Notes: generated by a model from the sequence alone, not told the origin. A DNA stretch of 64,000 bases from a virus (IMGVR_UViG_3300038318_000521:830-64829), one strand, 5' to 3'. Counted from the stretch's first letter, positions 5,510 through 20,151 are shown. Numbers and translations are program-made.

Positions 5510-6040
5510 TTATTTGGTTAGATCGAATTGCTCATCAGGATCGTAATCATGACCAGTTGCCATCATTTTAACCAACCGTCTACTTCGGGTTTTGACTTCC
5601 CAATACCACTTACTATCTTTCATTTCCTCGGCTGCGTTAAAATACGCCCCTACTTCGAGATGTTTGATCATTCTCCTAAACCCTTTTAGACCGTCCATTC
5701 CTAGATTCAATCGCATGTCCACAATAATCTTTTGGCGAATCGGGTTTAAGTATTTGAACCAAAAGAATTGTTTAACGTCTTTAGTACAGACCGCTATATC
5801 GTTATCTAACATATATAAGGCTTCGTCTTTGGTTATTCCCCGTTCTTCGAGGATATAGATCACTTGGTCTTTATTCAGATCTTTGAGCCCTAAGATACGG
5901 TTTTGTTCCTCCGGATATAGTCCCGCCGCTTCGAGATTACGACCTACTCCGATTGTCTTCTTGCCTGCCGTACAAGGGTATACCCTCAATCGCAACCCTT
6001 CGTGCAGAATCAATTGTTCTTTGAGGCTATGCTTCACCAT
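5510..6040 (-). CDS. Endolysin, T4-lysozyme-like (GH24) muramidase without a cell-wall-binding domain
   Basis: Catalytic triad E-X8-C-X5-T in HEGLRLRVYPCTAGKKTIGVGRNL; AAEEMKDSKW motif. Confidence 0.85.
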   Translation of the reverse strand: MVKHSLKEQLILHEGLRLRVYPCTAGKKTIGVGRNLEAAGLYPEEQNRILGLKDLNKDQVIYILEERGITKDEALYMLDNDIAVCTKDVKQFFWFKYLNPIRQKIIVDMRLNLGMDGLKGFRRMIKHLEVGAYFNAAEEMKDSKWYWEVKTRSRRLVKMMATGHDYDPDEQFDLTK

Positions 6041-6075
6041 CCCTGTCCACCTCCAAATTCCCTATTCCACGCCCC

Positions 6076-6483
6076 TCACTTGCTATCAACCTCTTTCAGT
6101 TGTTCTAACGCTTTTTTTAGCGGGCCAGGCAGTGGAACGCCCATCTTACCCAAGTTCTCCATGACAGAAATTCCTTCGTTCCCTACATACCAGAAGATTG
6201 TTGCCGTTTGCACTAATGGCGTAGCGGATCCAACTACCCTATCAACCAAGGTGGCTAGTGCAACTAAGACAAAAATCCCAACTTTACGTGGGATTCCCTT
6301 TTTACCTACTTTGCTATTGGTTTTGCCCGTCTTTGACGATGCAAGTATGCCCGTGATAATATCAAATGTCACAACGGCAACTAGGATCTTTAGTGACATG
6401 GACCACTCCCAAAACAAAAACGAGAATAACGAACCACCCAGCGCAAAGAGCATTTTTAAAGCGTTTACATCAGTTTTTTCCAC
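6076..6483 (-). CDS. Holin (phage holin family 4 / toxin-secretion type)
   Basis: DIITG..AS...NSKVGKKGI.RK and NEGISVMENLGKMGVPLP signatures; TM segments. Confidence 0.85.
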   Translation of the reverse strand: MEKTDVNALKMLFALGGSLFSFLFWEWSMSLKILVAVVTFDIITGILASSKTGKTNSKVGKKGIPRKVGIFVLVALATLVDRVVGSATPLVQTATIFWYVGNEGISVMENLGKMGVPLPGPLKKALEQLKEVDSK

Positions 6484-6804: not shown

Positions 6805-7611
6805 TTACAGTTCGAATAATTCTTCCCGAACCTCATATTTTTCCAGACCTACCAAGCCATGAAAGATCTCGGGAACCTCTGGATGAATAATGATGTTCTC
6901 AGATCGGCGTTGGTATTGGGTAGCCTGTAGTTTACTGAAATATCCCTTTCTTTGTTCGTGTTTGGTCGCGAAAAACTCTGCGTGATTCTTGGCTTGTAGC
7001 ATTCTATCTTGCACGAACAAGTCTTTTAGGTGATGTCTCAAAACATTTGAATCGTACTCCGGAGGTAGGTTGTGGCTTGTGAATCCATCTCTGTTTTGGG
7101 GCAGTCCCTCAAAACGAAAACAATCGCCCCCCCACATGGACCGAATCATCGGAGAGTTTCGAAAGATCCGAATGTTTCGGTAAGTATACGTGTCTTGCCT
7201 TTCCCAGCCGAAAATCGTGGTGATGGGTTGTCGTAGAGCGTTATATCCCATGTAGTGAGCCATCTCGATTTCTGCCAGGGTAGCTTCGTATAAACGAGGG
7301 TGGAAGTATTCATCCGCTTGAATTTCTATAATCCAATCATAGCCCACACATTCGTTTTGAAGCAGGCTTTCTAACGCTTCGTCAATCGTCTCCCAGAATT
7401 GGCTTTTTTGATGGGGAATCTGAGTAACCACAATCTTTGGCCAGCGTTTTTCCATGCGCTTTAAGACTTCTAACGTTCCATCCGTTGATCCACCATCATT
7501 GACAAATAAAACATCTACCAACGGCAATGTTGTAATCAGCGCTTCGACAAATGGGTATTGAGCAGACAAAACGTTATGGAACGGGCAAATGCCCGCAACC
7601 TTAATTCCCAT
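6805..7611 (-). CDS. GT-A fold glycosyltransferase (family 2-like)
   Basis: VNDGGSTDGTLEVL and WIIEIQADE (DXD-like) motifs; ATG chosen after RBS GAGGGG. Confidence 0.85.
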   Translation of the reverse strand: MGIKVAGICPFHNVLSAQYPFVEALITTLPLVDVLFVNDGGSTDGTLEVLKRMEKRWPKIVVTQIPHQKSQFWETIDEALESLLQNECVGYDWIIEIQADEYFHPRLYEATLAEIEMAHYMGYNALRQPITTIFGWERQDTYTYRNIRIFRNSPMIRSMWGGDCFRFEGLPQNRDGFTSHNLPPEYDSNVLRHHLKDLFVQDRMLQAKNHAEFFATKHEQRKGYFSKLQATQYQRRSENIIIHPEVPEIFHGLVGLEKYEVREELFEL

Positions 7612-8569
7612 GTGGGACACCCCTCATAGCCTCTAGGTGTTTTCTAGTATCCTTAGCTATAGCAGGCAAATCAACGTCTGCTCCCAAGAGTATCATTTTT
7701 TCAGCGGGTTTGTCCCCTCCAGGCACATTAAAAAGAACAGTCCACCGTTCCTTAGTCGGTAGGCTGTTCGTTATTATTGTAAAGATTGGTGTTTCTACAA
7801 TGGCTACGCCGTGTAAACAGCTCCACACTATTGGCATACTGAGTAGCTCGATCAAATAATCGGTGCCCGTTTGGTCGATGCTGTTCATCACATCTAGCCA
7901 AATGTCACCGATTCTGATTGACTCCTCACAGTCTAAGCTGCATGGAAAATGTGTTGTTGTGCGCAACCCCATATACCTAAGCATTTGATTCGTATGGATG
8001 TGACCTTCAACCTCTATCACTCTGTCAGCTACCATCTTAGAGTTCTTCGTCTCTTCTGCGGAGTGCCATACGGGGTCATAATAACCGTCTCCCCATTTTT
8101 CTACAAAGAATGTGCTACAACAATCGGGAAACAACAGTAAGTCTCCCAGTTCCTTGTGATCCGTTTGCCCTCTAGCCATGTACGATGAAGCTCTACGAAA
8201 CGCTTCTGCATCTTCTAAGTTCCTGGCCATTACTCCGTAGGCACTACTATTGGAGTCGCCCACCACGGTCGGAATATGCCGATGGCTAAAGCCTCCATAG
8301 TTTCTAGTCCACTGTATTGGAAGCCAAACCATGTTGTCTTTGTGGAATCTTTCGATCAAACTATGAAAGGTGTGGGGCGAAAAGTGGATTGTACCGCACT
8401 TGCGCAGCCCCCTTCTTACCATTTCATATTCGGCTTTATCATGAAGCGGGAGGGCCCTATTCAACATAACTTCGTATTTCTCTCTGGCTTCGGTAGAGTT
8501 CCAAACCAGTCTTGTGAAAGGGTTGACGTCTATCTGCAATAGTCCATCTTGGTTGAGCTTATTCATCAT
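7601..8569 (-). CDS. Cys-motif protein resembling DUF483
   Basis: FPDCCSTFF and HFPCSLDC motifs recall the GYPxCC / PCSxxC pattern of DUF483 (from memory); RBS GGGGAGG. Confidence 0.5.
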   Translation of the reverse strand: MMNKLNQDGLLQIDVNPFTRLVWNSTEAREKYEVMLNRALPLHDKAEYEMVRRGLRKCGTIHFSPHTFHSLIERFHKDNMVWLPIQWTRNYGGFSHRHIPTVVGDSNSSAYGVMARNLEDAEAFRRASSYMARGQTDHKELGDLLLFPDCCSTFFVEKWGDGYYDPVWHSAEETKNSKMVADRVIEVEGHIHTNQMLRYMGLRTTTHFPCSLDCEESIRIGDIWLDVMNSIDQTGTDYLIELLSMPIVWSCLHGVAIVETPIFTIITNSLPTKERWTVLFNVPGGDKPAEKMILLGADVDLPAIAKDTRKHLEAMRGVPHGN

Positions 8570-8580
8570 TTTTTCCTCCC

Positions 8581-9903
8581 CTACACTTTCCACGAGTCGC
8601 CATGATCGCCATGGTCACCGTGTGCTCTGTCGCCGTGTTGTCTATCGCCATGACCACAATCGTCCTCAGAAGGGGACTGGCTGGGTAACGGTTGTGTCGT
8701 CTGCCTGCAATGACTTAGGTTTACCCTGGCATCTTGTCTCCAGCTACTCGCCCTGGGATTACTTAGGGTAGACATAAAGCAAAAAGCGTCAGGATTCATA
8801 CCCTTCACTGAGTTAGGATCTGAGAACGCCTCGCTTTCTCGATCTGTGGTAAGTTCGATGTTTGGTAGCATCATTTTGAGCAACCTTGATGTTTCTTCGA
8901 ACAATCCCCTTAATCCTAGGCAATACCGACTTCGATTACGCCAATCACCATCTATGCCTTCCGCAGGGCACCCTCCGGTGCAATTTCTCCAATATTTACA
9001 GTCTTTGCACCCACCGAGTTCCTGCCCTATCTTGGGAAGAATCTCATAACGAATCAAACCGAACCCTCTATCGCCTGCATTCTGAAAACGGGGATAGATA
9101 TGTCCGGTCTTTGAGGTTTTCATGCAGCTTGCGGTGCTTCCGTCTGACAAAATGACTCTTTCTGCACCGGCGTTGTAATAGTCACACGGAGCGAAAGAAC
9201 AAGTCCCTTGATTAAGACCTAGCAGACTATCTACGATGTCTCGATAAGGAAGCCAATCCCCGCCCACTTCTGTCAAAATAAAACGGGTCATGTCTCGGTA
9301 AAAGTCATCGAGTTCCTCGGGGGTTAGTGCAATTTTCTGTATACTGGGATAATCAATTTCAGCAGGATTCATTCGGCCAGTTATTCCGAGCTCTTTCAAT
9401 TCCAAAATCCATTGTTTAAATGCTTCTCGTTGACCAGGCAAGCCATTAGCTTTTGTAAGCACACAGATGATGCCCACTTGAATACCCTCGCGACGTAGCC
9501 ACTTGATGTTTTCCCAAATTAAATCTGCAACATGTTTATCTTTGGAATCCACTGGTATGCGGTATCGGCTCATCTCGCCAGGCCCATCGAAGGAAACGCC
9601 AACCTGGGTTTTGTAAAGTTTGAAAAGCTCAATATGTTTCTCATTAATCAGAGTTGCGTTCGTTTGGATGGACGAGTGCCCGATTTTCTCAAACGATGTT
9701 GCCAGGATGGCCTCGACCACATCAAGGGGGGCCAGTAAAGCCTCTCCCCCATGAAGGTAAGGTGCGGTTTGCTCTCGCTCGATTTGAGTTAATACCGCCT
9801 CTAAGTCAAGTGGTCTGTGGTTGGCCCTTTCCCGATAAACGTGTTCATAACAGTATGCACACTGTAAATTGCAGAGTGCATTAGTAATTTTTACACTAAG
9901 CAT
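8581..9903 (-). CDS. Radical SAM/SPASM enzyme (peptide-maturase type) with a C-terminal HGD-repeat tail
   Basis: CNLQCAYC (CX3CX2C), HGGE motif, SPASM CSFAPC...C and CKDCKYWRNCTGGC (CX2CX5CX3C)...C. Confidence 0.92.
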   Translation of the reverse strand: MLSVKITNALCNLQCAYCYEHVYRERANHRPLDLEAVLTQIEREQTAPYLHGGEALLAPLDVVEAILATSFEKIGHSSIQTNATLINEKHIELFKLYKTQVGVSFDGPGEMSRYRIPVDSKDKHVADLIWENIKWLRREGIQVGIICVLTKANGLPGQREAFKQWILELKELGITGRMNPAEIDYPSIQKIALTPEELDDFYRDMTRFILTEVGGDWLPYRDIVDSLLGLNQGTCSFAPCDYYNAGAERVILSDGSTASCMKTSKTGHIYPRFQNAGDRGFGLIRYEILPKIGQELGGCKDCKYWRNCTGGCPAEGIDGDWRNRSRYCLGLRGLFEETSRLLKMMLPNIELTTDRESEAFSDPNSVKGMNPDAFCFMSTLSNPRASSWRQDARVNLSHCRQTTQPLPSQSPSEDDCGHGDRQHGDRAHGDHGDHGDSWKV

Positions 9904-9920: not shown

Positions 9921-11516
9921 TTAAAAATACCCCTCAAAACGGGGGTTATCCATGTGACCAGTGCCTGAATCGGAGTGATCGGTGTGGTCAAACGTTATGT
10001 GATCTGTATGGTCTATATAATGAGCATCCCAATATGGGCTAAAAACACCTCCATCATTGTGTATGTTGCCATAATCTTGATGGTCTATATGGGGGTACGG
10101 TATGTTAATGACTTCATCGACATGACCTTCCGCTACGTTAATGTACGCCACGTTTTCATGCGACACGTTTTCGTGAGAGACGTTTTCGTGCGACACGTTT
10201 TCGTGCGACACGTTTTCATGAGACACATTCTCGTGAGAGACATTCTCGTGCGCCACGTTTTCGTGAGACACATTCTCGTGAGACACATTCTCGTGCGCCA
10301 CGTTTTCATGCGATACATTCTCGTGAGAGACATTTTCGTGATCTCGATCTCCGTGGGGCGAATCAAGGTGATCCCCGTGGTCAGAATGGAATGGATCCCA
10401 TCCGTTTAGGTATGGTGTATCTAGATGCACTACATTCTCGTGCGACACGTTTTCATGCGACACGTTCTCATGAGACACATTCTCGTGTGTGCGATTAAAG
10501 TGATCTCGATAATCTCCATGCAGCGTTCCGATGGCTATATCTGTATGACTACGGTTTTCGTGAGGAGAAGCGCTGTCAATGTGATCAAACCACGCATTAT
10601 CGGGATAAGAAGAGCTATCGGAATAAGGGTACGTCCAGTCCACATAATAGGGCCACGAGGGACTTTTCCCCCCCGGATATAGATCTGAATAATTGGCATA
10701 AGGGGGTGAGTAATCCATGTGATCCAAATGAACACGGTCTTCATAACTGGTCCAACTTCCGGAATTCCTGTGTGTCGTGTCGGTGTATGGAGCAATGTTC
10801 TCATGCGACACATTCTCATGCGACACGTTTTCGTGAGATATGTTCTCGTGGGCTCTATCAGTATACGCTTTGTTCTCATGCGCCACGTTTTCATGCGCCA
10901 CGTTTTCATGAGACGTATTCTCGTGTGACACGTTTTCATGAGACGTATTCTCGTGTGACACGTTTTCATGGGACGTATTCTCGTGTGACACGTTTTCGTG
11001 AGACGTATTCTCGTGCGCCACGTTTTCGTGAGACACATTCTCGTGTGACACGTTTTCGTGAGACACATTCTCGTGTGACACGTTTTCGTGATCTTGATCC
11101 GCATGATCATAACTAATGTCCGCGTATATATTCTCGCGAATAAGTCTATCAACATGGTTGTCATCATTGTGTGCAGGCTGGTCCAAGTGATCGGTGTATC
11201 CCTCGTCACGATCACTGTGATACGAACCTCTGATCACATCCCCGCTAGCACTCGGCTTGCTAAACCACAGCCACCTTTGGGGGTCTATGGCTACATAATA
11301 AGGAGGTCTTCCGGATGGAGCTCGCTCTTCGGTGTCGATAACTCGCTTGCGTTGATTCGCATCAATGTAGCAAAAATAGTTTCCCTCGATCCAAAATCTA
11401 CCTGGTGGGTAGGTGGTTGCTCCCATATCGCTGCCTAGGAAACTCCACTCTTCTCCATTTCTGAGGATGTAAAGCCGTTCCCCCTGCACCCAAATATTAC
11501 TGTTATTGTAAGGCAT
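9921..11516 (-). CDS. His/Asx-rich repeat protein (HENVS array); putative virion fibre and rSAM substrate
   Basis: RBS GGAAGGAGG; 37 HEN motifs plus many H/Y/W-x-D/N triads; N-terminal IWVxG/FWIEG beta repeats; immediately downstream of Tal. Confidence 0.85.
   Translation of the reverse strand: MPYNNSNIWVQGERLYILRNGEEWSFLGSDMGATTYPPGRFWIEGNYFCYIDANQRKRVIDTEERAPSGRPPYYVAIDPQRWLWFSKPSASGDVIRGSYHSDRDEGYTDHLDQPAHNDDNHVDRLIRENIYADISYDHADQDHENVSHENVSHENVSHENVSHENVAHENTSHENVSHENTSHENVSHENTSHENVSHENTSHENVAHENVAHENKAYTDRAHENISHENVSHENVSHENIAPYTDTTHRNSGSWTSYEDRVHLDHMDYSPPYANYSDLYPGGKSPSWPYYVDWTYPYSDSSSYPDNAWFDHIDSASPHENRSHTDIAIGTLHGDYRDHFNRTHENVSHENVSHENVSHENVVHLDTPYLNGWDPFHSDHGDHLDSPHGDRDHENVSHENVSHENVAHENVSHENVSHENVAHENVSHENVSHENVSHENVSHENVSHENVSHENVAYINVAEGHVDEVINIPYPHIDHQDYGNIHNDGGVFSPYWDAHYIDHTDHITFDHTDHSDSGTGHMDNPRFEGYF
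10146..10340 (-). repeat. 13 tandem 15-bp units encoding HENV(S/A)
   Basis: Counted directly; units vary mostly at synonymous positions. Confidence 0.95.
10428..10487 (-). repeat. 4 tandem 15-bp units encoding HENV(S/V)
   Basis: Counted directly. Confidence 0.95.
10791..11090 (-). repeat. 15 + 4 tandem 15-bp HENxx units separated by one YTDRA unit
   Basis: 10866-11090 (15 units) and 10791-10850 (4 units), counted directly. Confidence 0.95.
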
Positions 11517-11539: not shown

Positions 11540-14500
11540 CTAATACGGTTTGACTGGCAAAATGATAGCCGCGGCTTCAACCACTCCTCTGAAGTATGCG
11601 TCCCCCGTCTGGGTGCTCATTTGAATCGATATGCGTCCCAATGTGTCATAAAATACGATTCCAACTCCCGAAATTTCAATTCTGCTGTCGCCTACACCAG
11701 TGCCCATAATCTTTACAGCGTTAGCATCAATTGTACCTGTTGTGATGTGTGAGCCATTGATATAGGTAAAACCATAACTAACCGCCAGCACAGCTGGGTT
11801 GTCTGTGGTGAAGTACATACCGATTAGAAAATAGTGATACGAACTATCTTGGAGTGCTGGCCTTGTTGTACTAAACATGATCTCACCAGCAGTAGTCGTC
11901 TTGGAGCATCTGGCGTACACGTAAAACTGTTGGCCTAATGTTTGCTGTTGAGTTTTAGCCGAAATGTTCCAAGTCTTCGCTTCCTCTCCAACATCCGTGG
12001 CTAGAATTAAATAGCCCGAGGTGTTAGAAAACTTTCCGCTGATATCATCGGTATTTGCATCCATCTTTACACCAACTAGCTGGAAGTTTCTTGTCCCGGC
12101 CCCAACTGCCAGATGTTGTGTCTCGACCGTAGTTGGCTTAATCCCTGCACCGTCAAAATAACCCTCTTCATTCCCAAAAAAGTGATGGTCTAGTAGCTTT
12201 TGGTAAGTTTGTTGCGCTAGATATGTGGCCGCAATACGGTCAGAAAGTAGTTTCGGAATATTCACCGTGACCACATTGGACGGTGGGCTTACATTATGCG
12301 AACGATCTCTAGCCCGCACACGTACATAAACGACTTGATCGGCGTACATACCTGTAAGATTGAAGGTATTCGATGAGCTATAGTACGTTTTAAGGTTTTG
12401 CGTGAAGGAGCTGTTCGTAGCAACCTCAATTACATAGTCAAGCAAATCTGAAATCACAACCGGTTGCCAGTGTAAAACCACATCTCCGTCATCGTTAATG
12501 GAAACAATCAGGCCAGTTGGTGCTCCAGGAGCATTCGCTTTCCCACCTATCGCTAGGGATGTTGTGGGGTCGCCAGTGGAGTAAATCCCTGCCCTGCTAA
12601 CCGTTCTGACCCGCCATGTGTAAGTAACGCCAGAGGCAAGCCCTTGCGTGTCTTGGTAGACTTCCGAATCCTTGTCCAACGTAGCAATAGTGTAAAAGGT
12701 TCCTCCGTCCGCCGAACGGTCCACAAACTGTTGGTGAGCATGTTCGCTCTCGCTTTTTGTCCAGGTCAATTCTGCAACCAAAACGACATTGCCATCTTTA
12801 GAAACAAACGATTTTTCCTGGGCATTCAGATTAGTAGCCGGTTCTGGTGGAGTAGGATCTTCTGTGGGGATTTCTTCGACGGTAGCTGAGACGATTTCGG
12901 ACCACTCACTGATTCTGCTGTTTTTGATGGCTGCTACTTGATACTCCCAAACGCTGTCTATTTCAAGCTGCTGGTGGATAAAGACACTGGTTGGTGAATC
13001 GAACACCAGCCAAGGGCCATTCTCTGTTCTAGCTCTGACAGCCCAAGAATCTGCGTTGCTTGTCCATGTAACGACAATGTAGCCGAAGTTGGGATGAGCG
13101 ATCACTTGTTTGGGTACGTCTGGAATATCTCCCAAAGTTCTGCTTGATGGTCGTCTGCCAAGGAGTGGTTCCACGGGATTATATAAGAAGTCATTTAGCC
13201 CCCAACGAATGCGACGATCAGAACGACTACTTTGGAAACTCTCATCCTTGATCCTGGCATTTGCCACCATTTTGTTTCTTGGGTGTACTACTGTGATGGT
13301 ATCCCCGAGGCTGACTCCGTTTAACTCCCTTATATCATCCACGGGAATTGATACCTCGAAAGCTATATCGGGTTGACTTCGTCTTTCTAGTTCTCTTTGT
13401 CCAGCCTGAATCAACTCCGCCATTGTTTCGGCTTCTGGGAACACAAAATCATTGGGGAGTTCGCCATGATCCTTGATTGACTGATCGTTTTTGAGCTGGA
13501 CGTATAATTGTTTGGCGCCTTCTCCTGCCCCAAAACAATCTAAGACGTTCGCTAGTTTAGTCTGGTCGTCCCTTAACACTGTGATCGCGATGTTCCTACT
13601 GTGTTCTATGACGAACGGGTCTTCACTGTTGATCGTTCTGTTTTGACCAAGGGTTGCCTCACCGTTTTCGCCTAGGTCCAAGTAGACCTTCTTGGCCGCT
13701 TCGTCATGACGGACTCGAAACTCCCATCCGTATTCATCGCAAATGTTGGCTAAACTCTGCAAGAAGTCCACTCGTTCAAATTCAAAGCCTTGAACAATGA
13801 TGCCAGTGGTCGAGGGGATGCTTCCAACGTTAAGGAATGTTTGTTCTCGCCAGATTAGCTCCACGCCTTCAAGATAAGGCGTAAAACCATACCCTACAAC
13901 CTCGCCATGAGCATCTTTGCGCACACTTTCTTGATCCTCGGTGTAGAGATTGATACGAACATCAACCCATCGTCCTGTACCGGCGATAGGAACACCATTA
14001 ACCTCGTTTTCTTGAACATCGCCGACGTTTATTGCGGTCATCTCTGGTCCCCAGGAGGCACTATCTAAACCTGCGCTCGTGGCAGCACTTCTGCTTTGTA
14101 CAGCAATCCGAACGTAAGCATCAATAATCTCTGTCCAGCGGAGGATTCGTCCTGAGCTCAAAGCACTCTCGCCTAAGTCATGGCGAAACTGGATGTAGCC
14201 CCATGCTTTAGGGCGTTCATTTTGAGGGTCCTCTGGGTGTGGTTCATACTCCAAAATAACTGACCCAGGTTCGGTGTCGATGTCTACTTGGTATCTTATA
14301 GCTGTTTCCCAATCCGCTTTGGTGTTCCACCTTTTAAATCGGAATCGTCTTGTGTGATCACGAACCGCATCTGCTAAATCTTGGCCATTCCAACCCTGCC
14401 ATTTTGAGGGCGTTTTGAAATTCTTCATACGGTGGGCATGGCCTTGAACGGCAAAAGAGTATTCCTCGCCAGCTAGGTCCCTGCTTTGAATAAAGCCTGT

Positions 14501-14698
14501 AGCACACTGATCGTAACGGTCATAAATTGCAACATATGTGGCCAAACCCAATTGCTCTACGCCATCTACATCGTGAGGAAGGGAGAATGATGCTTGATCT
14601 GCAGTGTTTATTCTACGTCTAGCCTGCCTTAAGATTATGTCTTGTATGGGTTGCCCCACGGGATTTAGATCTTGATCAAAGCACTTTACGTATGCCAC
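11540..14698 (-). CDS. Tail tip/hub (Tal-like) protein with fibronectin type III domains
   Basis: Follows the tape measure; prophage-endopeptidase-tail-like N-terminus; Fn3 repeats (PGAPTGL...WQPV...DYVIEV...YVRVRARDRSHNVS). Confidence 0.75.
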   Translation of the reverse strand: MAYVKCFDQDLNPVGQPIQDIILRQARRRINTADQASFSLPHDVDGVEQLGLATYVAIYDRYDQCATGFIQSRDLAGEEYSFAVQGHAHRMKNFKTPSKWQGWNGQDLADAVRDHTRRFRFKRWNTKADWETAIRYQVDIDTEPGSVILEYEPHPEDPQNERPKAWGYIQFRHDLGESALSSGRILRWTEIIDAYVRIAVQSRSAATSAGLDSASWGPEMTAINVGDVQENEVNGVPIAGTGRWVDVRINLYTEDQESVRKDAHGEVVGYGFTPYLEGVELIWREQTFLNVGSIPSTTGIIVQGFEFERVDFLQSLANICDEYGWEFRVRHDEAAKKVYLDLGENGEATLGQNRTINSEDPFVIEHSRNIAITVLRDDQTKLANVLDCFGAGEGAKQLYVQLKNDQSIKDHGELPNDFVFPEAETMAELIQAGQRELERRSQPDIAFEVSIPVDDIRELNGVSLGDTITVVHPRNKMVANARIKDESFQSSRSDRRIRWGLNDFLYNPVEPLLGRRPSSRTLGDIPDVPKQVIAHPNFGYIVVTWTSNADSWAVRARTENGPWLVFDSPTSVFIHQQLEIDSVWEYQVAAIKNSRISEWSEIVSATVEEIPTEDPTPPEPATNLNAQEKSFVSKDGNVVLVAELTWTKSESEHAHQQFVDRSADGGTFYTIATLDKDSEVYQDTQGLASGVTYTWRVRTVSRAGIYSTGDPTTSLAIGGKANAPGAPTGLIVSINDDGDVVLHWQPVVISDLLDYVIEVATNSSFTQNLKTYYSSSNTFNLTGMYADQVVYVRVRARDRSHNVSPPSNVVTVNIPKLLSDRIAATYLAQQTYQKLLDHHFFGNEEGYFDGAGIKPTTVETQHLAVGAGTRNFQLVGVKMDANTDDISGKFSNTSGYLILATDVGEEAKTWNISAKTQQQTLGQQFYVYARCSKTTTAGEIMFSTTRPALQDSSYHYFLIGMYFTTDNPAVLAVSYGFTYINGSHITTGTIDANAVKIMGTGVGDSRIEISGVGIVFYDTLGRISIQMSTQTGDAYFRGVVEAAAIILPVKPY

Positions 14699-14736: not shown

Positions 14737-17700
14737 CTAAAATCCACTACCATCTGCGGTTGACAATGCTTCTCTCACTAATTCTGTTACGAATCCGCGT
14801 ACATCTGTAACGCCGTTCAAATTCACGTTTACTTGCTGGATTAACACTTGTTGAATCAAAAGCTCTTGTGCATGAATGGTGCCGATTTCCGCCATCTGGA
14901 ACGTTTGAAACACTTCAAACATTTGTTCGCTCATGAGTCCAGGTAGACGATCCAAATTTGAAAGTGGTCGTAGAGATTCTAGGAACAGATCTCTATCTTG
15001 ACCGGAAAGACGAGTGATTTGAACTCCTCTGATTTCATGTTGAATCAAGGTATCGTCTGTTGGGAACCATTCGTCAAGCATGTCACCGCCGAATTCTTCA
15101 AAAGCCTTTTCGCCTTCTTCCACTAACTTGCGAATGGCTCTGCGAATTTTCTCGACTTCATCTTCGCTGTACCCATCTTCAGCAAATTCCTGCATCATCC
15201 CAGCGATGAGTTTGGCTTGTGCTTCGAACTCTGTAGCCAGCAAAACCTGTTCTATCAAAATGCGCTTTAGCTGTTGTCCCAACACTTGTTCAAAGTCTTG
15301 CCAGGTGGCTTCGCCAGCAATGGATGCCGCCATGGCTGAACCCAGGCTGTTCAACGATTGGTTCATGGAATCGATCATTACTTTTCCAGTTTCAAATCCC
15401 GCTCTAGCCGCTTCCTCATTGGAGATTTTCCAACCAGTCTGCCACAAAATGCCCAGGAAACGTTCTTTCTTGATGTTTGCTTCTGTTGCCTGATAACTGA
15501 CGCCGAATTCATCTAAGGCTTCATTCAGACCTTCTATACCCTGTTTTAAGGATTGAAGATCTTGGGGAACGGGTCCGGGGTCAAACAACTGATTTATCAA
15601 GGAGATTCCCGCTGAAATTCCAGCAAAGACGGGGTTTCCGGTTAGCCCTGCTATTGCGCCTGAAATTCCAGCAATAGCCCCCGTAAATCCTCCACCACCG
15701 CCTGTGTATCCCGCCATCGCCCCGTACATCGTTGCAATTCCGTCTCCGTAATCCCCGAACATCTCGCCCATAGAGTTCCGCATGTTATCAAAGGCCTGTG
15801 GAGCTTCTCGGATAAGTCGGAAAAATTCCTCGGTCTGGTTAACAGCCTCGCTGAACTTTGGTGCCATTTGACCGAAAAACTGCGCTGTAGATTCTTCGGC
15901 GTCGCGTATCTCTTCGCCAGTTTTCAGAAGATCGTTCAAGTATTCTTGCTGTTTGATATGGTCATCTGTAGCATCAATCAGCTTCAACAACTGACCATAC
16001 TTGTCTCGCAAGCTAGCCAGGTCACTCTTGTTATATTCAATTGCCTTAATGCGGGCTACCGCATTCTGCTGTGCTTGCTCTTTTTCTAGTTCAATCTCTT
16101 GTTTACGAACTTCTTGCCATTCCGATGATAGCATGTAGAGCTCACCATAAAGCTGTTCGTATCCCTCTCTCATCCGCCTAAGGATGTCCAGCCTATCCTC
16201 TAGGCTAATTTCCTCTTCGATGGTCATGGCGTTGAGTAAAGACCGTTGATCTTCGAGTGTTTGTTTGGCCAGATTGTGCTTAGCTCGCTGGAGGCCACGT
16301 TCAAGTTCGATTTTCCGTTCGTTGCCTGCGGCGGTTAGCTCCAGTTCGCTTTCGATACCTGCGATTTGCTCTTCAAGGACCGCCTGCGCACTTACCTGCC
16401 TAGACTGGATCAAGAAACTCTGCCATTGCTCTTCGCGTCTTTGAGCGTCCTCTAATCGCCTTTCCTCTTCCTTTTCTAGCCGAAGTTGGAAAGAATCAAG
16501 TTCAGCCATCGCATAACGCCCGGAATCCATGGAGGCATACAGGTTCATGCGCTCCGCAATCCATGCCTGCGTTTCCACAAGGTCAGCTTCCCGAAGATCA
16601 CCAAGGGACTTGATTTCATCAGCTACCCTATCAGCTAGGTGGCGGGCCTCGATTTCAGCGTAGTTCTTGCTAATCGCCTGCAAGCGTTCATGGTGGGCCT
16701 GATAAGCAAGCTCAATCATTTCTTGGCTGCCCTTGTATTGGTCCAACTCCCGATTCAAGCGAAGCAATGATTCAGCGATTTCTGCTTCTTCTAACTCACC
16801 CTTATTTCTTAGTCTTTGAATTTCAACCTCTTGGGTTCTGTAGCTGATTTCTTGGGCTGCCCTGATAGCATCTGCATCCATCTGTTCCGTGAGCTGACGG
16901 CGTAATTGGGCTATAGCTTGGATTTGGTCAAAGGACTGGGCATAAGCTCCTGTATATCTGTCTAGATTCTCCAGTTGTTGCTCTAACGTCCACCCCTCAA
17001 CCTCTGCCAGTGCTCTGTAATTCGTCATACGCAGGGCAAAGATTTCGTTCTCGATGGACATTAATTCTTCAGTGGTCTGAACTAGGCCCTCAACTTCCAG
17101 GACGTTTTCCTGTAGCCACTTTATTTGTTGCTCATAACTACTTACAACCTCATCATTTTGGTGCTTTAATTCCTCGAATAGCTGTAATTGCTCCCGGAGT
17201 GGTTCGTTACCACTTGCCGGAGCTTCAGCCGGGTCTAGTTGCTCTTGTACCCTGGCAACTTCACGCCATAGCCGCAACCATTCATCTGTGCCTACTGTAA
17301 CGCGCTCCAATTGGTGGTTAAGAACCTTCAAATGGTCTCCCAGGCTAATCTTCTCAGCCTCGACCAGGTAACTATAGTAGTTTTCGATATGCTTCTCCAT
17401 GGCCTCTAGGTCTTGGAGGTCAACATGGATTTCTCCGCCCTCTAAAGCCCTTCTAAGCATCCCCTCTTGTGGACCATAGTGACTAACCATCTCAAGAATT
17501 TGATTCCAGCGATCTGCCGTGGTTAAAGCAAAACTATCAAGTTCCTTTTTAACAACGCTTAGGGTTTCCTGCACCCTTACCTGCGTCATGGCCGCCAAGC
17601 TACCGTCTACCGTCTGCGATTGGAGGTAGTCGAAGTATTCGCTTAGGTGGGTCTCTAAGCCGCCTAATTCGTCCACGTATGCACCTATGCCCATGCGCAA

Positions 17701-20151
17701 GAGTTCAAGCTCTGCTTCAAAGACTTGCATCCTGCTAGTTACGATGGTGTCGGGGTCAACCTCTTTCGTGGCATCCTCTACTTCGTCCGCCAACTTCTTC
17801 AGTTCATCACGCATCTTGCCAAGTTCAACGGCAATTAAGCCACCACGAAGTTCTTCGGACAAGATTTCGTCCACCACGTTCTGCTCTAAGAACTGGATAT
17901 AATCCTTGTGAATGGATTCTAAATCGCCATAAACAGCTTCGTATTCATCACCGACATGGCGTACTAGCTCTATCCTTGCACGATATAAGGCCATTTCTCC
18001 CCGGATCGCATCTTCGATTTCCTCGGCTGTTTTGATAACGACTTCTTTGACTGCTTCTTGTTCTTTAACAACCGGCAGTTCTTCCCTTGCCATTGTGGTT
18101 ATGCCCTTGGCCCTACGTTCAAGTTCATCACTTACCGCCGCAGCGTGTGTTTGGGTATCCAGAATTTCAGCTATTCTTTCATTGTCTTTTTCTGCTCTGT
18201 CCATTATCTTGGACACACTAGCAACAGCCTGATTTGCCGCAGCTCCAAGATAGGCCACCTTGTCTTCCCAAGTGCTGGCTGATATATCGTCCATAAACAT
18301 ATAACCGGGGTCCCACTCAAGGAAGATTTTTCTCATGGTATCTTCGGCAATTTGGGCTGCTTCGTCCGTGCCCCGCAAAAGGGCCTCCTCCCAACCCATG
18401 AAAGCCAATTGCATTTCATCTCTTAGGCGGATTATCCTGTTTGCTTCCTCCATTTGAGTGCCAACATCTAGTTGCCGCTTGTCTCGTGAAGCATACAAAC
18501 GATTCAATTCTTCTTCAAGTTGATTCCTGGTCCTCAAGTATTCTAAATTCGCCATTCGCAACTGTAGCTCACTCTGAGTCTCCAAGGTTTTTATATAGGT
18601 CTCCAGAGTACCAATGTTTGCCCGGATAGCCTCATCAATGGTATTATAACCTTTGGATAATTGCGGTTGCAGAGTGATGATTTCATTCATTACAGTCTCT
18701 AACCGCCTGTGTTCTTGTTCGGACTTGTCAGGCTTGCCTTCAAGCGTCTTGTATTCATCGACTAGCCTGCGGAGTGTATCGGCCTGGTCTTGTGTGGCCC
18801 TGGATGAATCGAGAGACTGTTGGTAAAAAGCCTTCATGTCTCTTGCGCTACCAGTCATGGCGAAGGCCAAAGCAGTCACCGCTGCCACGCCACCATAAAT
18901 AATACCCGTAGGGCCCATTAGTATGGGAAGTGCTTTCAGAAGCTGGTTAATAATTAGCATTGTAGGACCAGCTGCTACTGCAAATCCTGCTACTGTCACA
19001 ACAAGACGTTGAGTTTCTGGGTTGAGATCCCGAATCCAGCCAAAGAGTTCTGTAACCTGTTGAACAACGCCACGTAACGCTGGCTCGAAGTTTCCTGTCA
19101 TTTCCAACGCTAAGCTTTCATAGACCGATTGCATTATCTTCAGGTCACCAGATAAGGTGTCAAGCTGTATAGCCGCTTGTTCGGCGGCCTTATTGGTTCC
19201 TGTAATGCTTTCGTTGTATTGCCTGATGGCGTCCCCGCCTTGACCCAATAGTTGCATCATGCCAGGTCCAGCAATCTGCTGGAATAACCTAAGACTTTGC
19301 GTTGACGTAATTCCACGTTCGTTCAGGGTATCAAGAATATCAGCGATAGAGTTCATTTCCGGGTGAAGGTCATCAAGAGATAACTCCAGCTCCTTAATGA
19401 CATTAATTGCATCACCAGTAGGATTTGCCAGTTCTGCTAAGGCTCTTTTTAGTATATTACCGGCCTGTTCACCTTGGTAACCAGCGTTTAGAAGCCCCAT
19501 GAGGGCAGCCGTGGTTTCCTCGATTGAGTACCCGAATCCAGCGGCGACAGGGCCTGCGTTTTTCATTGCTCCAGCTAACTTATCCAGACTAGCCAGCGAT
19601 TCAGAGTTAGCTGCGGCGAATAGGTTTGCTACCCTACTGGCTTCTCCCGCCTCTAGACTGAACTGGCTTAGAGTAGCTGCCACCACCTCAGACGTGTAAG
19701 CAAGATCTGATTGCGACGCTACAGCTAAGGTTAGTACACCATCCAATGCGCTAATTGATTGGGCGGCGTCCATCCCAGACTGTGCTAAGTAATAAAGGGC
19801 ATCGGCGGCTTGACTAGCCTTAAAGACGGTTTCTTCACCTGCTTTTCGGGCGGCGGCAGTCAGTTGCTCTAATTCTTCGACCGTTGCACCAATAACCGAT
19901 TGCGTGTTGGCCATTGATTGTTGGAAATCGGCAAACGTATTAACCCATTGGCGGGCCATTAACAGAAGTGGAGCTGTTACAGCTACCGACATGCGCTTAC
20001 CCATGCGATCGAAGTGATCGCCCATGCGATTCATCGCTTTTTGGGTTTCAGTATCGATCCACTGATTTTGTCGGGCTATATGTTCAATACCTTGATCATA
20101 CTTAGCGTAGTTAAGACCCACCTCAGCCCATATGCTTCCTAAATTCTCCAT
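14737..20151 (-). CDS. Tape measure protein (TP901-type core), 1804 aa
   Basis: FQQSMANTQSVIGAT...ASQAADALYYLAQSG core; long helical/coiled-coil body; hydrophobic segments. Confidence 0.93.
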   Translation of the reverse strand: MENLGSIWAEVGLNYAKYDQGIEHIARQNQWIDTETQKAMNRMGDHFDRMGKRMSVAVTAPLLLMARQWVNTFADFQQSMANTQSVIGATVEELEQLTAAARKAGEETVFKASQAADALYYLAQSGMDAAQSISALDGVLTLAVASQSDLAYTSEVVAATLSQFSLEAGEASRVANLFAAANSESLASLDKLAGAMKNAGPVAAGFGYSIEETTAALMGLLNAGYQGEQAGNILKRALAELANPTGDAINVIKELELSLDDLHPEMNSIADILDTLNERGITSTQSLRLFQQIAGPGMMQLLGQGGDAIRQYNESITGTNKAAEQAAIQLDTLSGDLKIMQSVYESLALEMTGNFEPALRGVVQQVTELFGWIRDLNPETQRLVVTVAGFAVAAGPTMLIINQLLKALPILMGPTGIIYGGVAAVTALAFAMTGSARDMKAFYQQSLDSSRATQDQADTLRRLVDEYKTLEGKPDKSEQEHRRLETVMNEIITLQPQLSKGYNTIDEAIRANIGTLETYIKTLETQSELQLRMANLEYLRTRNQLEEELNRLYASRDKRQLDVGTQMEEANRIIRLRDEMQLAFMGWEEALLRGTDEAAQIAEDTMRKIFLEWDPGYMFMDDISASTWEDKVAYLGAAANQAVASVSKIMDRAEKDNERIAEILDTQTHAAAVSDELERRAKGITTMAREELPVVKEQEAVKEVVIKTAEEIEDAIRGEMALYRARIELVRHVGDEYEAVYGDLESIHKDYIQFLEQNVVDEILSEELRGGLIAVELGKMRDELKKLADEVEDATKEVDPDTIVTSRMQVFEAELELLRMGIGAYVDELGGLETHLSEYFDYLQSQTVDGSLAAMTQVRVQETLSVVKKELDSFALTTADRWNQILEMVSHYGPQEGMLRRALEGGEIHVDLQDLEAMEKHIENYYSYLVEAEKISLGDHLKVLNHQLERVTVGTDEWLRLWREVARVQEQLDPAEAPASGNEPLREQLQLFEELKHQNDEVVSSYEQQIKWLQENVLEVEGLVQTTEELMSIENEIFALRMTNYRALAEVEGWTLEQQLENLDRYTGAYAQSFDQIQAIAQLRRQLTEQMDADAIRAAQEISYRTQEVEIQRLRNKGELEEAEIAESLLRLNRELDQYKGSQEMIELAYQAHHERLQAISKNYAEIEARHLADRVADEIKSLGDLREADLVETQAWIAERMNLYASMDSGRYAMAELDSFQLRLEKEEERRLEDAQRREEQWQSFLIQSRQVSAQAVLEEQIAGIESELELTAAGNERKIELERGLQRAKHNLAKQTLEDQRSLLNAMTIEEEISLEDRLDILRRMREGYEQLYGELYMLSSEWQEVRKQEIELEKEQAQQNAVARIKAIEYNKSDLASLRDKYGQLLKLIDATDDHIKQQEYLNDLLKTGEEIRDAEESTAQFFGQMAPKFSEAVNQTEEFFRLIREAPQAFDNMRNSMGEMFGDYGDGIATMYGAMAGYTGGGGGFTGAIAGISGAIAGLTGNPVFAGISAGISLINQLFDPGPVPQDLQSLKQGIEGLNEALDEFGVSYQATEANIKKERFLGILWQTGWKISNEEAARAGFETGKVMIDSMNQSLNSLGSAMAASIAGEATWQDFEQVLGQQLKRILIEQVLLATEFEAQAKLIAGMMQEFAEDGYSEDEVEKIRRAIRKLVEEGEKAFEEFGGDMLDEWFPTDDTLIQHEIRGVQITRLSGQDRDLFLESLRPLSNLDRLPGLMSEQMFEVFQTFQMAEIGTIHAQELLIQQVLIQQVNVNLNGVTDVRGFVTELVREALSTADGSGF

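Follow-up and report, generated by a model that had tools for sequence, protein, structure and literature searches.

Among radical S-adenosylmethionine (rSAM) enzymes, AmcB, DynA, GrrM/OscB, YhhB, FxsB and XyeB are cyclophane or crosslink synthases which, like anSME, abstract hydrogen from a side-chain carbon, and DynA links a ring residue to the C-beta of an Asn two residues on. On HAA, HNR and HTK motifs the known triceptide synthases bond C2 of a His to the C-beta of residue 3; Tyr is accepted too, and repeated motifs within one precursor are known (PMC11499958, PMC12912966); HaaB, HtkB and YhhB all make the bond from His-C2 to the C-beta of residue 3 (PMC11499958). A preprint on Thermus phages lists a module of 'rSAM protein, DUF483 protein and a hypothetical protein', does not tie it to protein modification and does not remark on an H-x-D rule (bioRxiv 10.1101/2024.08.14.607894). 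Here we describe a cassette in a 64-kb stretch of viral DNA (IMGVR_UViG_3300038318_000521:830-64829, hereafter the window, taken from a 64.8-kb provirus record of ~92% completeness) in which three genes, adjacent on one strand, are homologous to the Thermus phage trio, the first of them encoding a 531-residue protein that is for the most part a succession of His/Tyr-x-Asp/Asn triads. The reading we favour, as more likely than not, is that this triad protein is a multi-site substrate of the adjacent rSAM enzyme, probably, by analogy, with triceptide-type crosslinks from His or Tyr to the C-beta of Asx, a chemistry not known from any virus protein, and that it is a protein of virion type. In the literature on phage triceptides, on phage rSAM enzymes with histidine-rich proteins and on phage-encoded peptides that are synthesised on the ribosome and modified after translation (RiPPs), we found no description of such a system, the preprint being the only mention of the module. 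The elements of the cassette, in window coordinates, are as follows.

9921-11516, minus strand: triad protein gene, 531 aa; a folded N-domain, then ~430 aa of His/Tyr-x-Asp/Asn triads
11217-11516, minus strand: N-domain of the triad protein (residues 1-100), a predicted all-beta hairpin repeat (W-I/V-x-G ... Y-x-D ... R) with no His
10866-11090, minus strand: HEN array 1, 15 units (residues 143-217)
10791-10850, minus strand: HEN array 2, 4 units (residues 223-242)
10428-10487, minus strand: HEN array 3, 4 units (residues 344-363)
10146-10340, minus strand: HEN array 4, 13 units (residues 393-457)
8581-9903, minus strand: radical SAM/SPASM enzyme of 440 aa, its start 17 nt beyond the end of the triad gene
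8596-8652, minus strand: C-terminal tail of the rSAM enzyme (residues 418-436), five H-G-D motifs
7601-8593, minus strand: DUF483-like partner (330 aa); 13-nt overlap with the rSAM gene
6805-7620, minus strand: GT2 glycosyltransferase (271 aa); 20-nt overlap with the DUF483-like gene

The triad protein's open reading frame (ORF) contains 37 HEN motifs in runs of 15, 4, 1, 4 and 13 at a spacing of five residues, precisely the count that had been given in an original prediction made from this sequence alone; there are 81 [HYWF]-x-[DN] triads, 80 of them H/Y-x-D/N. The same prediction held that aromatic-X-Asx triads make up the whole protein and proposed that their frequency be compared with shuffled composition. 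When the arrays were masked in residues 96-531, leaving 251 aa, and the remainder was shuffled within segments 5000 times, D/N stood at i+2 for 25 of the 27 His (expected 6.1, SD 2.1) and for 16 of the 24 Tyr (expected 4.9, SD 1.9), counts that no shuffle reached (z ~9 and ~6, respectively), with D/N at offsets i+1, i+3 and i+4 from His or Tyr at or below expectation. The claim therefore holds for His and Tyr but not for Trp and Phe, which have D/N at i+2 in only 1 of 13 cases, the single WFD; the rule is thus His/Tyr-x-Asx, not aromatic-x-Asx. Residues 1-95 have no His and are not enriched in triads.

It had also been noted that the repeat units vary mostly at synonymous sites while His, Glu and Asn are held fixed, from which selection on the peptide was concluded. 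Across the 36 units of the arrays, codons for H, E and N do differ by 927 pairwise synonymous changes and 0 nonsynonymous ones, with 7 of the 8 possible HEN encodings in use, and positions 4 and 5 of the unit vary both synonymously and nonsynonymously. Taken alone, however, this pattern gives only modest support for selection, as a few ancestral unit types and recombination could yield the same result. ORFs that span the arrays out of frame were judged to be by-products of the repeat. Near the C-terminus, a D-N-P-R-F-E-G/K motif (window 9960-9980, minus strand) is common to two relatives (L002 and L007) and looser in a third (L009); from its recurrence it may be a conserved end signal.

The adjacent enzyme is, judged from its sequence, of the full SPASM peptide-maturase type. 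It matches Pfam Radical_SAM (PF04055) at 51.7 bits against a cut-off of 29.5 (E 1.5e-13) and has the CxxxCxxC motif at C11, C15 and C18; in an alignment of 34 homologues C15 and C18 are invariant and C11 is kept in at least 90%. The SPASM cysteines (235, 240, 260, 299, 302, 308, 312 and 328), invariant or nearly so in the same alignment, fully match the pattern Cx9-15Gx4C ... Cx2Cx5Cx3C ... C, as C240...G-x4-C260, C299-x2-C302-x5-C308-x3-C312 and C328, with C235 in addition. Since CxxxCxxC already lies at residues 11-18, there is no N-terminal recognition domain, such as an extension of the RiPP recognition element (RRE) type. The nearest NCBIfam families are AmcB (1.8e-24) and DynA (1.8e-23, over the full length), with anSME, GrrM/OscB, YhhB, FxsB and XyeB also among them, and a search of the PDB matched anSME and the triceptide synthase ChlB as solved relatives. 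About 190 relatives of the enzyme were found in the protein collection and none in a scan of genome contigs.

What ties this enzyme to the triads is seen across relatives. A scan of IMG/VR gave at least 131 viral contigs with the cassette, from digesters, soils and hot springs, and it also occurs in cultivated Thermus phages. In a census of 86 loci, made with our own ORF calls and hidden Markov models, 64 have a triad-rich ORF immediately upstream of the rSAM gene, usually at a gap of -3 to 66 nt, 73 have a DUF483-like ORF downstream, and 61 have both partners; in most of the others the contig is truncated or the triad ORF stands somewhere else in the locus. In the 81 loci with a triad ORF, the best such ORFs have 3022 of 3380 His (89%) in H-x-D/N, X2 is free, and residue 3 is Asp in 2574 triads and Asn in 448. 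As Asp is the usual residue 3, the HEN form of the window is a lineage variant. The enzyme carries the motif as well: 75 of the 86 loci have an H-x-D motif tail on the rSAM protein, some with 10-16 motifs, and His occurs as H-x-D/N in 71% of cases in the tails versus 10% in the catalytic cores, with Gly as X2 in 57% of the tail motifs. In the window enzyme the five H-G-D of the tail are the only H-x-D/N in the entire protein. These are two independent ties, one through the neighbouring gene and one through the enzyme's own tail, and the enzyme family and the motif are therefore linked. From these sequence patterns we consider it highly probable that the triads are the rSAM enzyme's sites, in keeping with the earlier suggestion that the triad is an enzyme recognition grammar; the tail might serve as a cis substrate, as a gate or as a tether. 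Several loci (L026, L028, L031, L033 and L055) have three H-x-D/N proteins for one rSAM enzyme: in L028 (3516-9685) proteins of 520, 386 and 256 aa are encoded upstream of a single rSAM gene, and a 118-aa ORF with 4 of 4 His in triads directly follows that gene.

In the body of the window protein there are 63 His, with acidic residues (86) outnumbering basic ones (13), and His-x-Asp is a common metal-ligand pair. Such a composition would suit an unmodified metal-binding ladder of His and carboxylates, a chelator or metal store, with the enzymes acting elsewhere, as had been raised as an alternative from the outset. We think this improbable: it leaves unexplained why Tyr obeys the same i+2 rule, why rSAM adjacency is near-invariant across enzymes that are only 30-33% identical, and why the motif is found on the enzyme's own tail.

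The relatives also define the conserved unit. D/N at i+2 of His is kept in 19 of the 19 homologues examined (z 3.8 to 21), again with X2 free, and none of them retains His-richness while losing the i+2 Asp/Asn, the pattern named beforehand as contrary to a triad rule. Contigs from anaerobic digesters and biogas have the same gene order, with upstream proteins of 532-819 aa that share the N-domain and whose triad bodies are almost entirely H-x-D/N and Y-x-D/N, one with 108 of 110 His in triads. Array copy number, which it had been proposed to compare, does differ between close relatives, with HEN runs of 7/6/4/1/4/6/2/4 and 9/4/1/4/14 as compared with 15/4/1/4/13 in the window protein. Thermus phage Cumys has the same trio next to a tail collar fibre gene (rSAM enzyme 33% and DUF483 protein 34% identical), and its triad protein of 343 aa has the hairpin repeat in three N-terminal copies, and all 54 of its His are in H-x-D, at irregular spacings of 3, 4 and 5 residues (11, 22 and 16 cases). 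Because spacing varies in this way while H-x-D/N stays, the conserved unit is the three-residue triad rather than a pentapeptide, and its survival through changes of spacing and of X2 is what a recognition motif would be expected to show. What sets the window apart is that its His-Glu-Asn unit is fixed, its 5-residue register strict and its use of Tyr heavy, and that it has an added GT2 gene. The cassette is found in Thermus phage phiMa too, and phiLo has the enzyme genes with no adjacent triad gene; in phiLo (L012, 3809-6443 and 10801-11070) IS605-type transposase genes occupy the place expected for the substrate gene, nine H-x-D lie in the rSAM tail, and a cut ORF on the opposite strand at the end of the locus has 18 of 18 His in H-x-D.

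The regular register of the window protein, in which 46 of 79 inter-triad spacings are five residues, invites comparison with a pentapeptide-repeat-like beta-solenoid of which the triad would be a by-product, a 5-residue pitch having been suggested for the HENVS arrays at the start. There are weak matches of pentapeptide type at residues 388-459 (LD_SV2 0.019, PipB 0.019), and on our reading of the consensus N-V-S fits a (D/N)-(L/F)-(S/T) core. We nevertheless give the solenoid only a very slight chance. The Pentapeptide family itself is absent among the Pfam matches listed at E up to 0.1, Glu would occupy the inward small-residue position, and Cumys holds the triad at spacings of 3 and 4. In an AlphaFold2 model of the triad protein, built with a 19-row alignment, residues 101-531 have neither strands nor any other secondary structure and form no solenoid (predicted local distance difference test, pLDDT, 31-41), a low-confidence model that speaks against a beta-helix fold, though not decisively. 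Disorder in this region is consistent with a substrate of the rSAM enzyme, since the chain would be expected to enter its active site.

Residues 4-100 of the same model form ten strands at pLDDT 80-96, so structure prediction gives a folded head and a disordered body. The separate N-terminal beta repeat that had been described is thus borne out, with two clear hairpin repeats in residues 1-95 (NIWVQGERLY... and GRFWIEGNYFCYID...), as is the lack of a signal peptide: no hydrophobic N-terminal stretch was seen on inspection of residues 1-95. The model indicates a beta hairpin-repeat domain of uncertain class. Its six best fold matches by VIA-align 2 are or contain bulb-type (beta-prism II) lectin domains, and bulb-type lectins and lectin-like bacteriocins are among the matches, which are weak (Z 3.3-5.3, the best being 5.3); its neighbours in the Atlas are propeller-blade-like (TM 0.35-0.45), the beta-prism II lectin sugar-binding sequence motif has no match in the domain, and a profile search of the domain against PDB sequences gave chance matches only. 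A strong WW-domain match at residues 61-100 (11217-11336, minus strand; PPYY...W.W), to proteins with dozens of WW domains (P0128, P0134), was judged to be a chance likeness of a PPxY...W hairpin.

The proposal that the N-domain acts as a leader or recognition element did not survive wider comparison. A word-index search found only two close relatives of the domain, and an exhaustive search gave a wider set in which the hairpin repeat occurs in 78 representative proteins, many without a His tail and often at the C-terminus. Because the repeat occurs without His tails, and because many substrates of the enzyme family have no N-domain, the domain is by its distribution a generic phage module and not a leader peptide. 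A role as virion anchor, the third possibility raised for it, is still plausible. The substrates that do without it include a 129-aa protein in L010 and H-x-D array proteins of 700-1400 aa with heads of the Laminin_G_3 or Gly_rich_2 type or from 'virion structural protein' or 'tail fiber' PHROG families. The 129-aa protein belongs to a locus (L010:5001-8506, and likewise L011) of non-phage-looking context, with a 383-aa rSAM protein that has no tail, a DUF483-like protein and a 309-aa membrane protein; it is membrane-anchored, with a hydrophobic segment and 11 C-terminal H-x-D, and the locus would seem to represent a cellular branch of the system with a small substrate.

The third protein of the cassette matches Pfam DUF483 at 4.2e-4, under the cut-off, and no NCBIfam family. 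C158, C159, C218, C222 and H146 are among the residues invariant in an alignment of its relatives. Its AlphaFold2 model is confident (pLDDT 91) and lies amid Atlas clusters of DUF483, largely viral; Foldseek gave nothing at E <=0.001, and the best VIA-align 2 matches, 2guk (Z 7.4) and NleE (Z 5.4), are inside the background range, so that there is no clear solved fold. In many loci the DUF483-like protein is 440-500 aa long and carries a C-terminal class I SAM methyltransferase domain, for which the matches are weak and consistent, and in one locus a GT2 domain is fused to it instead.

L021:9702-11174, DUF483-methyltransferase fusion
L059:9131-10468, DUF483-methyltransferase fusion
L037:532-2031, DUF483-methyltransferase fusion
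L068:9112-10575, DUF483-methyltransferase fusion
L078:9146-10513, DUF483-methyltransferase fusion
L050:11454-12827, DUF483-methyltransferase fusion
L022:11065-12783, GT2-DUF483 fusion

Fusions of DUF483 to rSAM domains are also cited in the Thermus phage preprint (bioRxiv 10.1101/2024.08.14.607894). With its fusions to several different tailoring enzymes, the domain looks, from its architecture, like an adaptor or recognition unit.

The separate GT2 gene is an accessory, found in six independent census loci. Asn is residue 3 in at least 22% of triads in 6 of the 6 GT2-bearing loci of a 77-locus census, as against at most 5% in 29 of the 71 loci without GT2 (Mann-Whitney p = 0.0005, not corrected for relatedness); at least 20% Asn is also reached in 19 loci without GT2, several of which have a methyltransferase-fused DUF483 protein. 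In the window protein x-Ser/Thr comes after 30 of the 44 triad Asn, which makes an N-glycosylation-type sequon (N-V-S; 10146-11090, minus strand). As a general rule the sequon was rejected, since the proteins of the five other GT2-bearing loci have no more than 1 to 6 each.

The mechanism that we infer, and with it the modification itself, the kind of bond, the sequence of steps and the virion location, would run as follows. The rSAM enzyme would abstract a hydrogen from the C-beta of the Asx at position 3, and the resulting radical would join the ring at position 1, His at C2 or Tyr at C3, to give at each site a three-residue cyclophane with a mass change of -2 Da. Ring closure would then be repeated site by site, at up to ~80 sites, along the disordered, strongly acidic chain of ~430 residues, with the DUF483-like protein as partner or adaptor and the separate GT2 adding a lineage-specific decoration. 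The N-domain would attach the array to the particle or to sugar, and the product would probably be a stiffened, protease-resistant virion tail appendage, whose lining of imidazole and carboxylate could hold divalent metals; metal binding, if it occurs, may thus be a property of the modified product. On the analogy with known synthases, we put the chance that the bond is a C-C cyclophane link as about even. It is tempting to go further and imagine that phage radical chemistry staples a tail appendage at dozens of sites, with DUF483-linked methylation or glycosylation and the H-G-D tail as primer or gate, to give a rigid, heat- and protease-proof, metal-chelating fibre for host contact, but this fuller picture is speculative and we offer it only tentatively.

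Several observations weigh against the favoured reading. The triceptide precursors that have been characterised are short and come with leaders, proteases and exporters, whereas the triad protein is 531 aa long with a folded 100-aa domain and no leader, in a cassette that has no protease or exporter. The enzyme is under every curated family cut-off, those of the 3-CyFE families included (AmcB 86 bits against 425, DynA 83 against 450, GrrM/OscB 60 against 310, YhhB 48 against 445, XyeB 27 against 450), so its chemistry cannot be read from homology. In the related HXS system the mass change is +8 Da and not -2 Da (PMC13128918), which leaves His-x-Y repeats open to other chemistry, and the virion location draws only on gene position and on the fusions in relatives.

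In a rival reading the triads are still the rSAM target and the reaction is something other than a C-C cyclophane, with the DUF483 protein, or its methyltransferase fusion, doing an essential second step; candidates would be a bond from His-N to C-beta as in dynobactin, an HXS-like +8 Da product, beta-oxidation, epimerisation or a methylation-linked reaction. DynA, the second-best curated match, makes both C-C and N-C links, the enzyme falls short of all family cut-offs, and the frequent DUF483-methyltransferase fusions suggest further steps; HxsB/C, moreover, act on His-x-Ser repeats with the +8 Da outcome (PMC13128918). Against this, the strict pairing of ring residue and Asx at i and i+2, the interchange of His and Tyr and the free X2 best fit a three-residue cyclophane rule, and for the HXS-like variant HxsB is only a weak N-terminal match at 31 bits. 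We regard a different chemistry as rather unlikely, and continue to prefer triceptide-type crosslinks.

The surroundings of the cassette bear on where the product might act:

14737-20151, minus strand: tape measure gene
11540-14698, minus strand: tail tip or fibre protein (Sipho_Gp37/fn3, central-fibre-J-like), ending 23 nt before the triad gene
5510-6483, minus strand: holin (6076-6483) and lysozyme (5510-6040)

The cassette thus lies in the late region between the tail genes and the lysis genes, with a small ORF, also on the minus strand, between GT2 and the holin and lysozyme genes. The first two gaps measure 23 and 17 nt and the other two junctions overlap, so that the stretch from the tail-tip gene through GT2 fits a single late transcription unit. 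We favour a virion appendage because of the fibre-type head fusions in relatives and the position after the tail-tip gene, and on this gene context it is somewhat more probable than otherwise that the triad protein is virion-associated. The tail-tip protein is a single 1052-aa ORF here (11540-14698), and in one relative (L002:1154-4333) it is divided between ORFs of 779 and 262 aa, the latter matching the C-terminal part of the tail-tip protein.

For the Thermus phages, the authors of the preprint guessed at DNA modification, a further point against a protein substrate, and based this on cyanobacterial homologues near deazapurine genes (bioRxiv 10.1101/2024.08.14.607894); the rSAM and DUF483 pair would then act on phage DNA and the His-rich protein would be an accessory. 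This seems to us very improbable, given that the rSAM enzyme has a SPASM domain and peptide-maturase relatives, that the motif is common to its tail and to the neighbouring protein, and that the cassette sits in the tail-to-lysis late region. Library scans of the window proteins found no DNA-modification genes in the cassette, and no protease or transporter gene either.

If the triads are crosslinked, as the favoured reading of the triad protein as an rSAM substrate would have it, this would be the first rSAM maturation of a phage structural-module protein and would extend peptide natural-product chemistry to whole proteins, with up to ~130 sites. Were the stapled appendage real, it would add a new class to the ways in which virion proteins mature, its product would be larger than any ribosomal cyclophane known, and it might offer a new principle for fibre stability or host recognition. 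The enzymes would form a new family with a simple, programmable recognition rule, H/Y-x-D/N, and the cassette would provide a first functional handle on DUF483. As cultivated Thermus phages carry the cassette, the system is directly testable.

How, then, does the locus compare with systems already described? Pentapeptide-repeat proteins share with the arrays a 5-residue period and an N-V-S core, but here the family is absent among the matches listed, no solenoid is predicted, and relatives do not keep the period. The triceptide systems (HaaB, HtkB, YhhB, ChlB, XyeB, GrrM/OscB and MicB) are alike in that an rSAM/SPASM enzyme adjoins a ring-residue-X-X substrate; they differ in that here the substrate has a folded domain and ~80 sites in 531 aa with position 3 fixed as Asp/Asn, there is no protease or exporter, the enzyme is under all cut-offs and has the motif on its tail, and the setting is a phage late operon with a DUF483-like partner. 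DynA is the second-best curated match over the whole length of the enzyme, at 83 bits, however, against a cut-off of 450, and dynobactin is a 10-residue antibiotic with one such link. The HXS antiphage system (HxsA/B/C/D; PMC13128918) likewise has a protein with a binding domain and His-x-Y repeats, matured by rSAM enzymes with a small partner, but it uses two rSAM enzymes and five His-x-Ser repeats with basic residues in a periplasmic host-defence effector, whereas here there is one rSAM enzyme and an H-x-D/N motif; HxsB scores 31 bits against 370, and HxsC is absent among the best 25 of 53 NCBIfam families for the enzyme. There is also the 'rSAM module' of Thermus phages Cumys, phiMa and phiLo, with a homologous H-x-D protein that has the same hairpin repeat, an rSAM enzyme and a DUF483 protein, from which the window differs in that those phages use Asp only, at irregular spacing, and have no GT2.

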